A DNA stretch of 64,000 nucleotides from Atractiella rhizophila. Taxonomy: Eukaryota. This document shows, piece by piece, positions 17,586-32,930 of the stretch. The DNA is taken from contig MU271254.1 of assembly GCA_021432655.1 (NCBI GenBank), positions 1 through 64,000 on the forward strand, in the 5' to 3' direction. The notes under the pieces were generated by a model, which saw nothing but the letters and a program-made list of their open reading frames with translations, had not been told where the DNA came from and ran no database searches. Within the stretch, counting starts at the first letter, position 1. Every line of letters starts with the position of its first letter. The position numbers and the translations under genes are program-made.

Positions 17586-19310
17586 TCACATGATGAACAA
17601 CAAATCTGTGTCGATTGGATGACAAGCCGAAAGCTGAGGCTTCTGACTATACTTCTCCTTGAGCTCCTCCCTGATCGTCTTGAGCAATTGCAAGTAGCTC
17701 TGCTGGGGATACTTGGTCAAACTGGCAATGAATGCGTAGCTGTTCCCCTTGTTGAGCTCCGTGAGAAAGAACGAGCTGTGGAACACGAACCTCATAGCTC
17801 CAGTAGCCTCTCCTTGAACCTGGGTATCCGCGCTCGTCTGATCGTCCCTGCAGCCGCTAAACATGATTACCTTTCACACCTGTCAATCACGGCTTTCGTT
17901 TAAGGGGGGGGGGGGAAATACGTCAGCAGGAGAAGTATTGTTTTTGATCGTTGCCTCGTGCGCCTTATCTGCCTTCTCTGCCATCATGGTGATCTGTTTC
18001 ATAGTCTCTAAAGCTCCTCTGGCGTCGCCAGCAAGATAGCTCTTCAGAGCCTCCATGGCCCCGCCTCCTGTTTGATCAAGGACATGACCGTAGGGTTCTT
18101 TGATCTTGCCCTCAGTAGAATACATGTACGGCAGGTCGAGGGCAGAACCAGAGTGACAGCAGTCGAAGAGCCTGCCAGAAACTTAAGAAGATTGCCCAGT
18201 GAACGTACTTAGGACGATGCGTACGCAGTAAGACGACAACCAGCAGGAAGTGGTCTAACGAGCAGGTCGTGAATCATGTCGTCGACGATTTGCCCCTCTT
18301 CGATGTAGTCAACAGGACAAATGGTCTCATCAGCACCTGAGACCAGAATTGTGAGGCTACGGTCTATCACGTTGGAATGAGACGAACCATCATGCTCATC
18401 ACCGTCCCCTGCGCCACCACGCTCGTCGGGAACTTGACCTCCATGCCCAGAATAATGAAATACCAGACTGTCGTTCGGCTGAGCATCTTGTACCAACCAC
18501 CTAGAGGCACGTTAGCCGAACACTTCGGGTGTCCACAACGTACTTCATAGCTAGGATAATATTCTTTCCAGTAGGTCGGAAATTTTCTTCCGTCCCTGGT
18601 TTATCCAGGAGTACCAAAATGTCATCGTCTTTAAAATCGTAGCCTTCTATCAAAAATCTAATCCCCCAGAGTTAGACATCGTCTGATGCCCCGAATTGAC
18701 CAACCTTTTCACGTTTTCGGCATCATTCCAACATCCGCGCAACTCAGCCTTCGTTCCCACATAGTTAATGCCAACGCAAACTGCCTTCTTCTTGCCACTA
18801 GATAAAGGGGCATTAAATCTTCTCCTCGAGCAGGGAGTGCGGCGAGCCTACCTGCAGTCGGAGTATGTCCACCAATCGTCCGCCCCTTTCTCCGGAGAAA
18901 GATGGAGCGCGCCGACGTCGGGAGGTTCCAATGCACCTGGCGGTTTTGGGTCGAGCGGCCCGCCATAGTGGTGCGGGTGAGGAGGAGCGGGAGGAGGCGT
19001 GAAGGTGTCCGCGGGGTACGGGTGCTCATGTTCTGCTTCTTGTTAGAGTGGAGGGCGTTGCAGATCATTACTGACCCTCAACCTCCTCGCTGTCTGACTT
19101 CTTCTCAGATTCATCCTCCTCCTTTTCTTCCTCCTCTTCTGCCTTCGCGGACTTCTCCTCTTCCTCCTCTTCATTGTCATTCTCGTTATTTTCTGCATCC
19201 TCTTCTTCGTTTTCCTCCTCGTCGACAGAGTTTTCGTCTTCGTTTTCATCCTCTTCTTCGTGGTGGACGTTCTCCTCCTCTGACTCAGGATCGGAATGGT
19301 GACGAGGCAT
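17586..19310 (-). CDS. Type I metacaspase with acidic N-terminal extension
   Basis: [17 protein letters not shown]...LRGCWND; catalytic HYSGHG and [28 protein letters not shown]-terminal exon is ~80 aa and D/E-rich. Confidence 0.92.
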
Positions 19311-19647
19311 TTTGATTGATTTGCGCTGAAACAACACAATCACTACTCCAACGAATGATGTTGAGAATGGAAGTTGGTATACCTTTTGAATTTCAAGCCT
19401 TTCTTGTCACCGAGAAGAAATTCTACGGTGTATGAAACGATGTTGTGAGCTTTTAAAGAGCTGAGGGCTGCGACTTGGACTTGGAGTGTTGCACATTGAA
19501 CGTTCAGAGGGACGTCACTCGACAGAAGCAAGTTGGCTGTAGAATGATTGCTTTGCACATACATACTATACATGCCCACAACAGCCTGTTCTTCCGTAAG
19601 CAAACTTCGGTAACCCCGGAGACGACTTACAAGTCGGTGTCTCACCA

Positions 19648-21151
19648 CTACTCATAGAACGCGCCCCACAGCTCAGTCTGCTGCTGCCTACTTTCCAACC
19701 TGATTTCTGTTCCTGCTTTCACGAAGATGCTGTGGCCTATTCCTAACTCCATCCTCTCTCCTGTGTCCATCTTGTTTTCAATCACAGCCGAACCTTTGAG
19801 CACGAGGAGGACGAGCGGGCCGCCGAACTGGAGCAGCTCAGATTCACATCCTGAGAGGGAGGTATGCAGAAGATTGAATTCAGGTATCGGAGGTGAGTAG
19901 ATAGTCGTGAATGAGGTCCCGGGGCGGGAGGAGCGGTTTAGGCGGAGAGAAGAGGCTGGGACGTGGCGATAAGAGAGCTGGTAAAGAGGTCAGGTCAGAC
20001 GGATTGAGACACAGAAGATCAAAACCATGTCAACGAATGTCTGCACTCCGCCTGCCTCTTGGCCCAAACCATGGCATACCATGTTATCGCTGTTTGCCAT
20101 GCATTCTACACAATCTCCTTCAACGTAAGCTGATGCCCAGCAGGTCAGTCCACTTCTACCTCCTGAAGGAACTTGTTACCGTGTATATCATCTGCCAGGA
20201 TCCACATTCCTTCTCCTTCCTTCACGTTTACCAAATTCATCATAAACGTTGTCACTAGTAAGCCCACGTCTTTCCCGTAAACGTCCCTACACTTGTTCCA
20301 GATACTCATGGAGCCTTGAGGCAAAGATTTCTCTCCTTCCTTCTCGATAGCTTCGATGGACTCTGCAATATCATCCGCAGTAAGGGTGATAAGACGTTGG
20401 AAGATTGCTCTGATCCCCGCCTTCTGCTCCTGGTCGCTTGAACTTGGATTGTGCTGGGATCTGAGGAGCGGCAAATCAGGAAGGAGTCGTTTCATTGTAT
20501 TCGAACGGTCGAGATTTGCGTAGATCTCTTCAAGTGGACAAAATCCAACGAAGGCCGTGAAGTCCGCCAATGCTACAAAACATTCTGGCTTTGCGTTGGC
20601 GTCTACTTCCAGTCAGATATATGTGATGTAACTGAGAGGCGTAGTTCGCACCAACAAACTCTCCTCCACCACCAGTGACGCGTTTTGCAATGTCAGACAG
20701 CCACAGTTTTGTACCAAGACTCTTGTCAGGGTGAGCTTGGAGAGGCAACGCTTTGTCGAAAGAGAGCACTTTGAAAAGGAAAGGGAGCCAAAGACCCCCC
20801 GCGTATGGTTGAAGAGCCGCCGCTTTCTCCCCCAAGAATTCGACTGGATTGGAGCTGATAATTTCGTGCAACGTTTTGGATGAAGAATAGAGTGTGGAGG
20901 ATCCATTGGGATGTGTGGACCCGATCCAAATTTCACCGTATGCTTCAATGGCCATGCTCGTCAACATAATGCGTGGTAAGAACACGAAACTGCGTACGTT
21001 GCTTAGGATCAATGGACACCTCTTCACCCAAAGCTGATTTGGCAAGCTGTGCGGCAAGCGACTTTTCACCTTCCTTCCCGTATGGAAACGGTTGAAGCAC
21101 TGGCTTCAAGAGAAAGATTGTGGGAGAGGAGTTCACCGTGGTGCTGGTCAT
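19648..21151 (-). CDS. Mannose-6-phosphate isomerase type I (divergent)
   Basis: YGEIWIGSTHPNG, LPFLFKVLSFDKALPLQAHPDK, KPE, DVG, ADDIHAY, ECMANSDN motifs. Confidence 0.88.
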
Positions 21152-21929
21152 AATGCGCACAGATGCTCTGAAGCTGCCTTGAATCTGCTCTGACCTGCTC
21201 GTGGTTGAATATTGAATTCTGGGATCAATCAGATCCTGGGATTCGTTATCAAAAATTATAACCGGTCAAGGTGGTCAACGGCGAGACGACATTTCACGTC
21301 ATCGTTCGAGATGCTTCCTAAACGAGTGACTTTATGGGTTGGGCTGTCAGCAAGTTTGACCATATTGTCACAGACGGCCAGGCTCAAAGTTCGAGTGATT
21401 CTAGTTGAAACAGTCAGACTCAACTGGCTGAGCTCTAAAAGAGACAGTAAAAAGAACACAGCGCGGTGATATCGACAGACTTGAGCGTTGCCGTATGATA
21501 GTAGGCTCACCTTTCTTTTGCCCATCTTCACCATAATTTGCCGCATCAAATTTTCAAATCAGCAAAAATGTTGCTAACAAACTCGTCGAAGATACTACCT
21601 CTCTTCACAAAATCAGCTCAGTACACAACATCATGGTTGCAATTCTTGTTGAAGTTAGCAAATCGGGACAAGTTGGAATAGAGAGATTCGAAAACGGCGC
21701 TTTTATTTCATTTCGAAAGGATTCACTGGTGTTCTATATCTGATGATTGGATATTATTTGAGGAATGTAGGTTATAATGAGGACTTGCAATGTTTTGATC
21801 TCCTTCCTTTCGGCCGAGCTTCTTTTTGTCTCCAGCTCCGGTCGAGCACATAAAAAACGCCGGGGCGCCTTGATCACTTTTTGTCCTTGTCCTTTTCTGA
21901 AGGGCGCGCACGGATGTTGAGTTGTTGAG

Positions 21930-23598
21930 ATGACGGATTATTGGGTCTCAAAGGGCAATTACTGGTGCAAGGCGCGTCACTGTCACTTTCTTACGTGATC
22001 TTGGAGAAATTACCCTGAAAAATCCCACTAGTTCTGCGAACAGTTCATCAGGGACGATGCTCCGTCGAGGCAGCAGCACGAGAGTGGTCTCAAGCATAAA
22101 GAGAGGCAAAGGACTTTCGTGAACAGACAGTATAAGGAGGCTGAACATAGGGAGCGGGAGAAAGCTAATGAGGCGAGAGCTATTGCATCCATTAATCAGG
22201 TACGCTTTCCTGGCATTTTGGGGGGCGAAGGGGTAACGAGGCGTGTTTCCGCAAGGCTGCGGGAGACGCTCCACCACCACCTGCAGCAGGAACTTCGAAA
22301 GCAAAACCTGCCGCTTCAAGAGACCCGTATGCGAACTACTCGACCGCCGCTTCGCTAGGATACCACGATGACGGAGAACGCTTCACGTCGGGTGGCCAAG
22401 AGGGTGTCATTGGCCAATGGCAGACCGTTCTCCCATCAGCTGCTCCTCCGAAGCCTTCAGAAGAGCCTGTTCAACCTCAGTCCACGAAGGTATCCTTGCC
22501 GTCAATTTCAGCATGGTTTGGAAGCCATCCTAGCGGTCAGGACATGCACATGCCTATGAACTCTTCGATGTTTACGGAACGTGGACACCCAGAAGGAGAA
22601 ATATACGATCCTGGTCAAATTCGGACAAGAGACGCCGCTCGCCTCGGTGGTCGCCCGTCCCCGTTTCCTGCTTCTCATCATGCCCCGAACAACATTGTCT
22701 GGACCAATCCCATGACGCACGTCGTCGACCCACATCGAGCTCTTCCGCCCATTAACACACCACCTCTCACTCAAAGAGACTTCGCTCATCCACCTCAAGA
22801 CTATCCAGGACGACAACCAGTCTATCAGAACCAGCTTCATCAGCAGTACGCAAACGATTCTCAGTTCGCAGACGAGGTTGGTCCGCCGGAAGGTCACTCT
22901 TGGACGGTTTCGACGAGCGAAGGAGAGCCAAAGATCAAGCGACCGAGGAATGCATGGATCATCTATAGGAGCGAGAAGCTGAAGGAGTTGAAACCTCAAG
23001 CTCCACAAGCCGAGTTGAGCAAAGCTTTGGGAGAAATGTGGAGGAACGAGCCACCGGAAGTCAAAAAGGAATATGAGCGTAAGGCGGAGGTGGAGAAGGC
23101 TCAACACAACAAGGCTTTCCCAAGTATGTCTCAAGCTTGACTCTGTCAACAACTCATTGACAGATTTTGACAACAGATTATCGTTTCCAACCGAAACCGA
23201 AGCGTATTCGAAAGACAGCGAAGAAAGCGGCCGACTCCTCCACATTCGACGCTGCTTCTGCCTCCACTCCTGCGAGCGTCTCCACCTCCTTCCGTGACAA
23301 TTCGGCAGGCGAGTCCAACGATTATGATATGGACGATCCAGACTTGGATGCCGCCGGTTCTCCCACCTCTGACTCTGGGTACCCTTCGGTGCCTGAAAGC
23401 AGCTCGTCTCCAAGCGTATCTCGCTCTGCACTCCCCAAGACTGAACTCCCAAATGAAGCTGGCCCTAGCGCATCTCACCAACCTGAACGTGAGGCAGAGG
23501 AAGAGAAACCTGCTAGTCGGGCGGACGACGAAGGAGGCGGTGGACCAATGTTTAAGAAGAGGAAGACGAACCGTTCGACGCGCACCAAAGGCACTTGA
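21930..23598 (+). CDS. U1-type (matrin) zinc-finger protein, FBP21/WBP4-like, with in-frame internal HMG box (predicted 499 aa)
   Basis: Exons 21930-21971, 22032-22199, 22256-23123 and 23177-23598 splice in frame. Motifs in order: MTDYWVSKGNYWCKFC...HESGLKH, PYANYSTAASLGY, KIKRPRNAWIIYRS...FPNYRFQP, C-terminal MFKKRK. Confidence 0.8.
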
Positions 23599-24669
23599 AC
23601 GGCACTCTACAGTTCGAGCGTACTCTACAACTTCGGCTTCCTGAGCGCCTTCTGTTTAACGTAAATAAGATTTGTGATTCGTTTGGATCCGTCAGTCCCA
23701 GAAGAAGTGGCACTTCATTCGAACAACAATCAGACTTTCTCCATTACACTTCCATCTTCGTGTTTTTTTTTCGCAACATATTCGACCACGACCAATAACT
23801 TGTCCAGAGCAACGATCGGTGCCGTTTGTCGATTTTATCCGTGTCGCTTTTCCTCATCGTACTTTGACCACACCAACCTCCTAATCATAATCAAGCTGAC
23901 ACCGTCTTCTGCTTGCGTTGCGTTCTGCTGCCTAATTCTTAGCCAGGTGTTACTCATCTTCCCTTGTTTGAATATGCGATCTTTCTTCGCTTTTCAATGC
24001 AGAAAGTTGATCAAAGATATATTTCTTATGCACCGTATTTGGTGCCTCCCATTTTGATTCTGTGTTCTTTTTCTTTAGCATTTTTGAACTGCTTTGCGAT
24101 TAGCGATCCCGTATCTACAATAGTGTATGCTACTACCGTAATCTTTCAGACCTTGTCGTCTACTTAAACCTTAAGAAACGCATGAAATATATGTAATTCA
24201 TCCTCTTCATTTGCTTCTGAGTTCTTTGTCTTGTTTGCCTTGACGATTTGTCTCCTTACCTTCATGATAACATATACGGACCTCTCCTTGCTCCCAAGGA
24301 GCAAATTATTTCAGGGAGGTCGTCGAGTTAAGATAGTGAGCAGAAACAAGCGGCCCGACCCGTGACGTACAAGATAAGGTAACGGCTAAGAATCTATGGC
24401 TAGATTGCATCATGGATGATGGGACGACACTGACAATAAGCAAACGTTTTGGCATTCGTGTAAAGAGACCATCATATCACCCATGAAGAAAATTCGAAAC
24501 GAGAAGATAGGAGACTAAATGAGGCAGAGATACAAGTACAAGCAGATGGACAGAAAAAACCGAAGACCCAGATAAAAACACCGTCCTAAAAACCAACCCC
24601 ACAACCTCGTCAGAACCCCATTCGATGATAGATAAGAATAAAGATAAGAGGACGCACCTATCAACTTGG

Positions 24670-25140
24670 TTACCCCTGACAATCTTCAGGAGGACACTCG
24701 AATCTCGTCTTGTGCCTCTTCCTAGGAATCATGACCTCGACCCTCTTGACACCGGGAATACTCTCCAACCACTTCTTGCAATCCAGAGTCTCCTCATCCG
24801 GAGGGTTCTTCGTTGGCTTCGGGAGACAATAGAGATGTTCGTTGTCAAGTTGCCCAACGAGTCCGACGTATGTGAGAATCTCCGACGGCGCAGACGAACT
24901 CGAGGACGTAGAGGAATGTGTCGAGCGGGTGAGGTCCCTGCTCAGGGTCTTGGGAGAATCGGTGACGCTCGAGTCATCAGGGATGTCTGCAGATGGATGA
25001 TCTTGGTGCGGGTCTTCGTGGTCGTGAGGCTCCGGGGAATCAGCAATGACGGAGAATGCTCTGGGGTGGTAGTTTCGATTGGAGGATACATGGAGATATG
25101 TATTCTCGTTGTACTTGAGAGCGATTGGTGGGTTGGACAT
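24670..25140 (-). CDS. Small hypothetical protein, possibly kexin/S8 prodomain-like
   Basis: Intronless 156-aa ORF with good start context (caccaccATG). Motif YVGLVGQLDNEHLYCLPK...LESIPGVKRVEVMIPRKRHK. Confidence 0.55.
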   Translation of the reverse strand: MSNPPIALKYNENTYLHVSSNRNYHPRAFSVIADSPEPHDHEDPHQDHPSADIPDDSSVTDSPKTLSRDLTRSTHSSTSSSSSAPSEILTYVGLVGQLDNEHLYCLPKPTKNPPDEETLDCKKWLESIPGVKRVEVMIPRKRHKTRFECPPEDCQG

Positions 25141-25469
25141 GGTGGTGCGCTTTTGAGAGTTCAGCTGAGCTGAGAAGACCCTGATGGTTCTTTTGTGGCT
25201 GAAAAGTCGGGGACCCTTGACCTTTTATTGTTCCTGTTTATCTGGCTTTACGGCTTTTGCCGTCACCCTGACGCTGTGTTTCATTCACTCGCGGCTTTCC
25301 GTCGGAGTTATCTCGGCAATGGCCGCCGCATTCTCGCACTTTCTCTTCTTCCACAACCGGCCATTGCCGCCCGAGGCATCGGCATCAGTAACACAACAGC
25401 AGCAAAGGTCGCACAGTCACGCAGAGTGGTTTACAGAGCAAGTTGTTGATACAAATCGTGAGAGGGATG

Positions 25470-30721: not shown

Positions 30722-32930
30722 CTACATCTCCTCGTCCATATCTCCTGGCTCCCCACCAGCCCCAAAGAACTCTGAAAAGTTGTAAGGTTGATTAGACTGC
30801 TCTCCAGCCATCTCTGCATCCCCATCACCAGCCGCATTCGAGATATTTCCCCCAGCCACCCTACGCTTTTCCTTTTCCTTCTTCTTTTTGTCCTTCTTCG
30901 CAGCCTTCTTGATAGCTTTGTTAGCCTGCACAGGTGCTTCCTCACCTTCAAACATTCTATCCTTCTGTGTGGTTCCTTTCTTCACATCCCCTGCGAAGGA
31001 CACCCGTTTCTTAGGTGGCTGAACGGACACGAAGGCTCCTCCCTCAACTTCGTCATCCTCTCCCTCTGCTTTTCGTTTATGCGAAATCGCAGGCTCATCC
31101 TCTACTTCCATCTCTGCGTCCTCTTGCTCCCCTCCCACCCAGCTCACACGGGCATCCGAAGGTTCGGCCATTGCATCCTCGCTGACTATCTTGACGAGCG
31201 ACTTTCCCATCTCCTTGCTCCCCTTTAGATCCCTCAGGGCATCCTTGTCCGCCTCTCCATATAATCCTCCGAGATCAAACTCAGGTGCCAACTCAGTAAC
31301 GATGGTTGCGCTTCCAACGTCGGAGGAGTCCATGGTGGCGAGAGGAGCGTCAGGTTGCTTCGCTTCTGGAACGGTGGGGGGATTGGTGTAGTATGGTATG
31401 CGGCCGGATTGCCAATCGCGTAACACCATCCGTGCTGCACCTGTGAGGTCAGGAAGACCGCCTTTTCGTATGCGACCGCGAGAGCGCGCAACTTGGACGA
31501 GGAAGTCTTGAACTGTTTGGAAGACGGGGATGTTGTAGAGCATCATGAGATGTTCGGACTTGCAAATATTTAGGATAAACTCCACTGTCCGTCTATCAGA
31601 CTCGTAAAAACAAGAGGAGGGAGAAGGACACGTACCCGGTCCAATGGGATCCTGAACATCTTCCACTTTTACTGCGTTGCGGAGAACAATTCGAGGATCT
31701 TCCTTCCCGACTCCTTCTCCACTTTCAAGCACAACACCCGGACAGTCCAGTACTTTCAGACCTTTATCTATGACTATCTCCTGTACTTGTTTTGTATACC
31801 CAGGCACTGGGGCAACTCCGCAAGCTTTAGAGCGCTTGAGGGTGTTGATAAGGCTGGACTTGCCCACGTTGGGATATCCGATGATTCCTACGGTGAGTGA
31901 CTTTGGTTTCGCGTTGGAGGTGGAGGTGGAAGGAGCGGAGAGGTCGGAGCGAGAGAAGTTTTTGAGAAGAGAAATGAGGGGTTGGGTGGATGTGGAGGTC
32001 GCGACAGTGGTGTCTGCTGTGAAATTGGCACGGGAGGAGAGATTGGAGCGCTGGGATTGCGTGGAAGACTTGAATGGAAGGGTGGGATGGATTCGACGGA
32101 GGTAGACGAGCCAAGCAAGGACGTTTTCTCGCGGCACAAGATCTGCATGACAATGATCATGTTAGCGCACCATTTCCGTGAAAGCATAGAAATGCAGATA
32201 TGGCCAACGCACCGATCTTGTTTAATACCAACACGAGTTTCTTCCTTTGCACCCCTCCGGATCTTAATACCTCCTTCTCAACCAGCATACTCCTCGTTCC
32301 TATCGGATCTCGCGCATCCAACACTTCCACAATCACATCCGAAAGCTCAATCACCTTTTTCAAGCTCTTCGCATGCGTGCGCAAATTCGCAGATTCAGGA
32401 ACTACATCTTGCGTCTCGTCTTCTTCGATGTCGAGAGACATATTTTCGGACGTTGCGCCGGAGAGTGCAGCTAGCGCAGAAGCATCGGTAGCAAGTGAGG
32501 ATGGAGCGAGAGCACGAGCTTGACGATCAGCCGCTTTCTGTGGTCAGCATAAAGGTCAACGATTGTTTCTGCCGGAAGAAACAAAGCACTCACCTTCTCT
32601 TTAGCTTCCTTCATCTCCTTCAGCAACCTCTCTTTGTACGGAAAAGCAGCGGGAATGCCAGGATCTTTCTTGACCCCTTTTCACGATGAGACAACGTCGT
32701 CAACAACCCATTGTTCCAGAGATAGCACAAAGAACGAAAGAAACGCACTAGATTTCCAAGTGACCTCATTCTTAGCTTCCTTCTTTGCCTTTTTGTGAGA
32801 AGCAGATATCCGCTTCTTGACCATCTCCCTCTGTCTCGTCGTTTGACGGTTAGACGTCTCTGCCAATAGAAGGAGAGGTAAGACAGAGCCATCAGACGTA
32901 GAAATGCGTACTCTTGCGTATTTTGACCAT
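30722..32930 (-). CDS. NUG1: Nucleolar circularly permuted GTPase (Nug1/GNL3-like)
   Basis: Basic N-terminus MVKIRKKTSNR, KKDPGIP, EVLDARDP, LNKID, GYPNVGKSSLIN, DCPG, DWQSGRIPYY. Confidence 0.93.

Follow-up and report, generated by a model that had tools for sequence, protein, structure and literature searches.

A WBP4/FBP21-like zinc-finger gene of Atractiella rhizophila with a SOX/SRY-like HMG box inserted into its reading frame

The locus described here lies in a stretch of 64,000 nucleotides (nt), called the window throughout, from the genome of Atractiella rhizophila, a root-associated basidiomycete (Pucciniomycotina) that belongs to a sparsely sampled class. The element in question is a gene on the plus strand at 21930-23598, in which a U1-type zinc finger and the motifs of WBP4/FBP21-like proteins share one reading frame with an HMG box (Table 1). 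An earlier annotation made from the letters of the window, the sequence-only reading, had proposed that four exons splice into a 1500-nt frame. When the exons were joined by their coordinates in a script, this frame was recovered without an internal stop, encoding 499 residues followed by a single terminal TGA. An in-frame stop is found close upstream of the ATG at 21930, because the frame 21771-21920 terminates there. Exon 3 was likewise found to be one uninterrupted open frame of 289 codons (stop-to-stop frame 22196-23140), as had been read before, and it runs from PYANYSTAASLGY via GVIGQW, GEIYDPGQI and a P/Q/H-rich stretch into the HMG box KIKRPRNAWIIYRSEK...KAFP. The protein had also been described as ending in FKKRK, which had to be corrected: the motif occupies residues 485-489 and is followed by ten more.

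The boundary of intron 1 is GC..AG rather than GT..AG, and the intron interrupts the C-x2-C of the zinc finger. In the alignment to the orthologues introduced below, their C-x2-C was regained only with the GC..AG splice. Agaricomycete-like metagenome loci align unbroken across the position of intron 1, which therefore looks lineage-specific. The GC content at third codon positions (GC3) over four segments was 0.50, 0.50, 0.58 and 0.54, and no Pfam family was found in the minus-strand frames 22508-23464, 23146-23655 and 21948-22382.

Table 1. Exons, introns and encoded motifs of the gene, in coordinates of the window.
Feature	Position	Strand	Remarks
Exon 1	21930..21971	+	Start codon, first half of zinc finger (MTDYWVSKGNYWCK)
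Intron 1	21972..22031	+	60 nt, GC..AG
Exon 2	22032..22199	+	Remainder of zf-U1 finger (FCEQFIRDDAPSRQQHESGLKH), charged helix-like stretch
Intron 2	22200..22255	+	56 nt, GT..AG
Exon 3	22256..23123	+	868 nt; FBP21-like motifs, linker, most of HMG box
ANYSTAASLGY motif	22331..22363	+	Codons 96-106; aligned with orthologues
GVIGQW motif	22403..22420	+	Codons 120-125; aligned with orthologues
GEIYDPG motif	22595..22615	+	Codons 184-190; final FBP21-like block ahead of insert
P/Q/H-rich linker	22616..22933	+	Predicted disordered, predicted local distance difference test (pLDDT) 45-65
HMG box, first part	22934..23123	+	IKRPRNAWIIYRSEK...KAFP; PF00505; three predicted helices
Intron 3	23124..23176	+	53 nt, GT..AG; inside HMG box, phase 1 in Asn codon
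Exon 4	23177..23598	+	HMG box end (NYRFQPKPKR), Ser/Asp-rich tail, FKKRK, stop codon
FKKRK motif	23551..23565	+	Codons 485-489; counterpart of human FBP21 356-FKKRR-360

A domain search against Pfam returned both families that the sequence-only reading had led us to expect, each above its cut-off. The zf-U1 family (PF06220) matched exon 2 alone with E=2.4e-5 and 24.5 bits (cut-off 22), and HMG_box (PF00505) matched exon 3 with E=4.6e-16 and 59.5 bits (cut-off 25.4). WW families did not turn up in any of exons 2-4 at E<=1. A query with exon 3 retrieved nine proteins, comprising five full-length agaricomycete orthologues (P0003, P0004, P0006, P0007 and P0008; 334-388 residues, PF06220 only), three truncated relatives and one stand-alone HMG protein. 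The five orthologues and the window protein are collinear and share, in this order, a zinc finger with four ligands, ANYSTAASLGY, GVxGxW, GLGEIYDPGxI and a C-terminal motif. The zinc ligands C13, C16, H30 and H36 of the window protein align with invariant ligands of the orthologues, and in the ANYSTAASLGY block Y, T, A, S, L and G are invariant in 17 sequences. The C-terminal motif of the orthologues reads (L/M/V)F(K/R)KR(K/R) and lies about 10-12 residues before the end; the FKKRK of the window protein aligned with these tails as well as with human residues 356-360. Altogether, five of the seven family blocks are present in order, and the best identity to the orthologues was 41-44% over the N-terminal 154 residues (Marasmius).

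The same order of zinc finger, ANYSTAASLGY, GVxGxW, GEIYDPG and FKKRK is found in basidiomycete zf-U1 proteins annotated as 'Matrin-type domain-containing', for example in Cyclocybe aegerita (P0003, 344 residues), Marasmius fiardii (P0008, 356 residues) and Rhodosporidiobolus poonsookiae (P0169, 357 residues). Apart from one merged model described below, the members of this group have 304-388 residues and PF06220 as their only family, whereas the window protein has 499 residues, an HMG box and about 150 extra residues. The fungal layout that the sequence-only reading had given, running from the zinc finger via ANYSTAASLG and GxW to FKKRK with no HMG box, was thus borne out in the orthologues.

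A profile built from the five full-length orthologues matched human WBP4 (5o9z chain Q) over residues 1-81 with E=7.2e-14, which upholds the previous assignment of the N-terminal part as WBP4/FBP21-like. U1C scored below WBP4 with the same profile (E=2.9e-6), and the human FKKRR tail was aligned only in a weak second stretch. Human WBP4/FBP21, a B-complex protein of 376 residues, shares with the window protein the N-terminal U1-type finger starting M-x-D/E-Y-W-x-S and a disordered C-terminal half that carries F-K-K-R-R/K followed by a short basic tail. In contrast to the human protein, the window protein is without WW domains and holds an HMG box within its disordered half, and binding to Brr2 and the spliceosome is putative here. 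Two WW domains are the feature behind the name of the animal protein; because they are lacking and PF06220 is the only family, we refer to the fungal group as WBP4-like and not as full WBP4. For the human protein, one report describes binding of 356-FKKRR-360 and the following residues to the C-terminal Sec63 unit of Brr2 (PMC5570060), and a second one describes a structure by electron cryomicroscopy in which residues 357-375 wrap around this unit (PMC8894380).

The HMG box was predicted to form three helices (exon 3 residues 233-244, 251-264 and 267-287) with pLDDT values of 93-98, while the rest of exon 3 was predicted to be disordered. The best fold matches were SOX18, SOX9, SRY, SOX11 and SOX2, with target template modelling scores of 0.73-0.82 and root-mean-square deviations of 1.0-2.2 A. 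The top six were all SOX or SRY structures; the Foldseek E-values were no better than 5e-3 to 3e-2, the domain making up 69 residues of a model with 289. By sequence, the closest solved relative was a chimera of SRY and HMGB1 with two boxes in tandem, of which the HMGB1-type box scored higher (22.8 versus 16.8 bits); SOX9 came next, with HMGB1 and TFAM just a few bits lower. Together, the matches to SOX9 and the SRY chimera by sequence and to SOX/SRY by fold agree with a box of the SOX/SRY-like kind; the sequence-only reading had named the MATA_HMG/SOX type. Sequence-specific HMG boxes occur as a single box, have an Asn in R-P-x-N-A-(F/W) where HMGB-type boxes have a Ser, and end in YP-N-Y-(K/R)-(Y/F). 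The window HMG box has RPRNAW and FPNYRFQP, and by this criterion its sequence would fit the sequence-specific class. The MAT alpha1 HMG-box family (PF04769) reached 14.8 bits and remained below its Pfam cut-off of 28.1.

Stand-alone HMG proteins of basidiomycetes (P0002 of Gautieria morchelliformis with 482 residues, P0017, P0020 and P0021) share RPxNAWI(I/L)YRS...YRFQP with the window protein. The identity was 50-53% to P0002 and 60-64% to the other three. Unlike the window protein, they lack a zinc finger as well as FBP21-like motifs, and their flanks are not detectably similar to the window linker. A link between SOX-type HMG boxes and the splicing machinery is reported from animals: according to the review PMC8198692, SRY, SOX6 and SOX9 act in pre-mRNA splicing, and the HMG box of SOX6 or SRY restores splicing in depleted extracts. 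However, these are separate polypeptides, whereas the HMG box of the window would be covalently placed within a fungal core-associated splicing factor.

With regards to the position of the HMG box, FBP21-like motifs lie in frame on both of its sides, so that it is an insertion inside the variable disordered half rather than an end-to-end fusion. The window protein exceeds the five full-length orthologues by about 110-165 residues. Orthologous metagenome genes have one intron, after about residue 74-79, equivalent to intron 2, and each of the loci L004, L006 and L012 gave one unbroken alignment to P0003 that begins at residue 78-79 and extends to 335-342. The sole intron in the corresponding region of the window gene is intron 3 within the HMG box. 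Since the orthologues are intronless there and the only intron lies inside the HMG box, the insert probably arrived as DNA with its own intron, which favours the capture of a genomic HMG fragment over retroposition. The models of P0017 and P0020, two of the closest stand-alone HMG proteins, end by read-through after '..HPG' and '..NPG', as would be expected if they continued into a phase-1 intron at this very position. No flanking repeats were found beyond short two-copy families of 14-16 nt, which were taken as chance, and the linker (exon 3 residues 126-222) had no significant match among 156 proteins (best E=0.10). The borders of the insert are therefore unmarked by repeats, by similarity of the linker to the flanks of HMG proteins, or by a GC3 contrast.

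Expression and splicing were followed in contigs from four public runs (X19, X1, X20 and the soil metatranscriptome X3), out of 20 rows that matched part of the stretch. Parts left uncovered in single runs (before 22055 in X19, 23262-23474 in X1) were not counted as absence, and contig depths were not used for ranking gene parts. A 689-nt contig of X19 is unbroken over 22406-23094, with five differences from the window, and runs through the GVIGQW block, GEIYDPG and the linker into the HMG box. Intron 2 is absent from an X19 contig at a depth of 130.8, with 79 letters on the short side of the joint, and intron 3 is skipped in two allelic forms at depths of 53.5 and 142.6. Skipping both introns, X19 therefore behaves as RNA or cDNA. 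One X1 contig also skips intron 3, at a depth of 5.7. Intron 1 is removed in a 605-nt X1 contig that links exon 1 to exon 2 and reaches 22606; the joint 21969->22030 can be shifted by 2 to GC..AG and has 28 letters on its short side. A contig of X1 covers 21795-21971 as well. The X19 (22406-23094) and X1 (22030-22606) contigs share 201 nt, so that the path from the zinc finger to the HMG box is tiled. Within X20, three contigs tile 22279-22992, two of which (22529-22752 and 22707-22992) overlap, and X3 matched 22440-22584 and 22599-22749 with zero differences from the window. Exon 3 is expressed as a continuous piece, and all three introns are removed. As a separate observation, X19 carries two forms of the tail and the 3' untranslated region. 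Over 23399-23526, two contigs have 0 and 9 differences from the window, and the small indels within 23399-23707 occur only beyond the stop codon, which suggests two haplotypes or mixed strains.

The same contigs bear on whether two genes were wrongly joined by the assembly or the annotation. Such an artefact would be in line with protein collections that hold only the fragments P0011 and P0012 and no fused model. However, the contigs of X19, X1 and X20 hold the same continuous sequence, each with its own strain differences, so that a misassembly is excluded. The junction is crossed by the single X19 contig, and the X20 contigs overlap one another, which makes an artefact of any kind extremely improbable. 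A misassembly had been raised earlier as something that reads might reveal; none appeared, the X19 contig being continuous from the motifs on the zinc-finger side into the HMG box.

The differences between the runs and the window were then used as a measure of selection, which covered 40 of the 52. The coding sequence holds 32 of these 40, and a script classified 24 of the 32 as synonymous, distributed as 1/1 in exon 2, 13/14 in exon 3 (where one change replaces Glu by Asp) and 10/17 in exon 4. Within exon 3, the synonymous fraction was 4/5 in the FBP21-like part, 7/7 in the linker (codons 234-283) and 2/2 in the HMG box, while random single-base changes in exon 3 would be expected to be synonymous in 23% of cases. 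The resulting binomial P values (expected fraction 0.23) were 5.5e-8 for exon 3 and 3.4e-5 for the linker, and under a generous expectation of 0.35 they were 1.1e-5 and 6.4e-4, respectively. The differences fall at third codon positions of the plus-strand frame, whereas antisense frames would take them at first positions. Because all seven linker differences are synonymous, far above expectation, the linker is translated in the fused frame, and purifying selection acts in this frame across it.

These data also speak to an alternative in which the locus makes separate products, namely an ordinary FBP21-like protein that loses the HMG part by splicing, a separate HMG protein that starts internally, or both, with the fused form being minor. 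Exon 3 does contain in-frame Met codons (MHMPMNSS, NPMTHVV), and contigs cannot reveal starts, ends or rare isoforms. On the other hand, no joint inside exon 3 or removing the HMG part was present in the four runs, and the 689-nt RNA contig crosses the boundary. The linker is open and under constraint in the fused frame, and the FBP21-like motifs continue in frame on either side of the HMG box. We therefore regard separate products as very unlikely.

The combination of both domains was searched for elsewhere. It was absent from the nine proteins retrieved with exon 3. PF00505 was found in 0/5 full-length orthologues and in 0/14 longer ones, all of which have PF06220 only; the 14 include one member of the Pucciniomycotina (Rhodosporidiobolus) and one 750-residue model merged with a major facilitator superfamily transporter. 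An HMMER search over 1.84 billion cluster representatives gave 842 matches at E<=1e-3, and none of the best 150 of these held a zf-U1/FBP21-like part together with an HMG box. A relative with both parts would be expected at about 90 bits and thus near the top of this list. The only 100% matches among the best 150 of the 842 were two fragments: P0011 (154 residues), which runs from the zinc finger to EEPV with differently placed introns and is 100% identical over exon 3 residues 1-72, and P0012 (61 residues), which covers the HMG part of exon 3. The splice choices of P0011 drop part of the zinc finger and take in a portion of intron 2. Public protein sets thus seem to offer no more than incomplete or wrongly spliced models of the locus, and because the collections searched hold just these two fragments, the gene is probably mis-modelled or missing in the annotation. 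Neither a full model of this gene nor a second Atractiella FBP21-like protein was among the orthologue hits, though proteins of the species are in the collection. Several candidates were set aside: the WD40 and bacterial Ig-like proteins P0014, P0144 and P0154 gave spurious multi-stretch matches to exon 3 residues 21-97, and P0013, P0015 and P0016 turned out to be multi-HMG proteins.

A metagenome scan with exon 3 alone gave no relative. An alignment-based scan found 20 metagenome loci with FBP21-like genes, none of which had an HMG match at E<=1e-2 anywhere in the DNA available for them, and 7/20 were collinear with P0003 to residue 335 or further, leaving no space for an insert. A tblastn search of the 64-kb window revealed neither another HMG box nor another FBP21-like piece (remaining matches E>=0.089), and the ESM Atlas returned only HMG-box clusters with scores <=0.85, which were taken as leads only. 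Literature searches aimed at it did not find a fungal FBP21-like protein fused to an HMG box in print. The earlier proposal that this architecture is unusual has thus held in the orthologues, the metagenome loci and the best 150 representatives, and to date the combination is restricted to a single lineage that has been little studied. While the two domains and the two families are well known, their combination was found in none of the collections searched. Taken as a whole, the locus presents a real, expressed and lineage-restricted domain insertion in a WBP4/FBP21-like gene.

The reading that we favour, and hold to be likely, is that the one gene encodes the WBP4/FBP21-like protein of this fungus with a SOX/SRY/MATA-like HMG box inserted between GEIYDPG and FKKRK, and that this protein would act in the B complex. 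Several observations weigh against it. The earlier idea that transcripts join the zinc-finger and HMG exons stood as far as the overlapping contigs of two runs are concerned, but a single contig or RNA molecule spanning both was not found among the four runs, and the two runs that supply the tiles are labelled with different organisms. The X1 contig over 22030-22606 keeps intron 2 though intron 1 is removed, and such a retention would cause a frameshift with a stop at 22358. Logan contigs lose rare variants, and there may be an internal start or a minor isoform lacking the HMG box. In the selection analysis, 12 rows lie outside the count, and the tail is less constrained, as seen from exon 4. 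Finally, the R-x-FKLRK block of the orthologues is degenerate in the window protein (SSMFTER) and the KW..W block is unrecognisable, so that part of the ancestral function may have been lost, judging from these two blocks.

The two altered blocks also agree with an alternative in which the fused protein is now mainly an HMG-box transcription factor, its FBP21-like parts are decaying or reused, and splicing is independent of it. Here, the HMG box is predicted to be the only well-folded part of exon 3, and the basic FKKRK could serve as a generic nuclear localisation signal; in PMC5570060, control basic peptides bound Brr2 about as well in vitro. However, the zinc ligands and three motif blocks are retained, and the synonymous differences in the FBP21-like part of exon 3 and in exon 2 point to constraint on the splicing-related parts. 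The lack of any other Atractiella-named FBP21-like protein among the hits is a weak hint at a single copy. In sum, we consider a protein that is mainly a transcription factor to be quite unlikely.

If the favoured reading of a WBP4/FBP21-like protein with an inserted HMG box is followed, the protein would be kept as a B-complex splicing factor whose U1-type finger is placed in the spliceosome. Its FKKRK tail would bind and restrain Brr2 via the C-terminal Sec63 unit, in the manner of the human protein. From the HMG box it would gain a module for the minor groove of DNA, a DNA motif or bent nucleic acids, by which the factor would be anchored on chromatin at particular genes or on structured RNA. 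The coupling of promoter binding to splicing that the sequence-only reading had suggested is speculative. A covalent pairing of an HMG box with a splicing factor is plausible because a part in splicing is reported for SOX6, SRY and SOX9 of animals, which are separate proteins. A more far-reaching version, which we put forward as doubtful, is a hard-wired coupler of splicing and gene-specific chromatin binding: a regulator of the Brr2 helicase in the pre-catalytic spliceosome with its own SOX-like box that would read DNA sequence or shape, or bent or four-way RNA (U4/U6), and would at the same time control spliceosome activation, tasks that animals divide between SOX proteins and splicing factors.

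Transcription and splicing are usually coupled via separate proteins and the polymerase tail. If true, the natural fusion would make it simple to ask whether splicing is altered once such a factor is anchored on DNA or structured RNA. The locus could also serve as a clean example of a folded domain that entered a disordered part of a conserved factor along with its own intron and was then kept by selection.

The surroundings of the gene hold several further features. Upstream and on the opposite strand, a neighbour at 20145-21105 (-) has a phosphomannose isomerase type I catalytic domain (frame 20530-21105), and an open frame of 112 codons, strongly acidic and rich in Glu, Asp and Asn, lies at 19068-19406 (-). 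Just past the 3' end of the gene, a 776-nt contig of X19 with a depth of 634.5 begins at 23678. It probably stems from a neighbour with strong expression, which may be the frame 24670-25224 on the minus strand, in which no Pfam family was found. Further downstream, a NUG1/nucleostemin-like GTPase (MMR_HSR1) at 30722-32161 (-) shares 96% identity with a protein of Atractiella rhizophila; the next best matches, from Mixia and rusts, reached 45-47% identity at comparable coverage.

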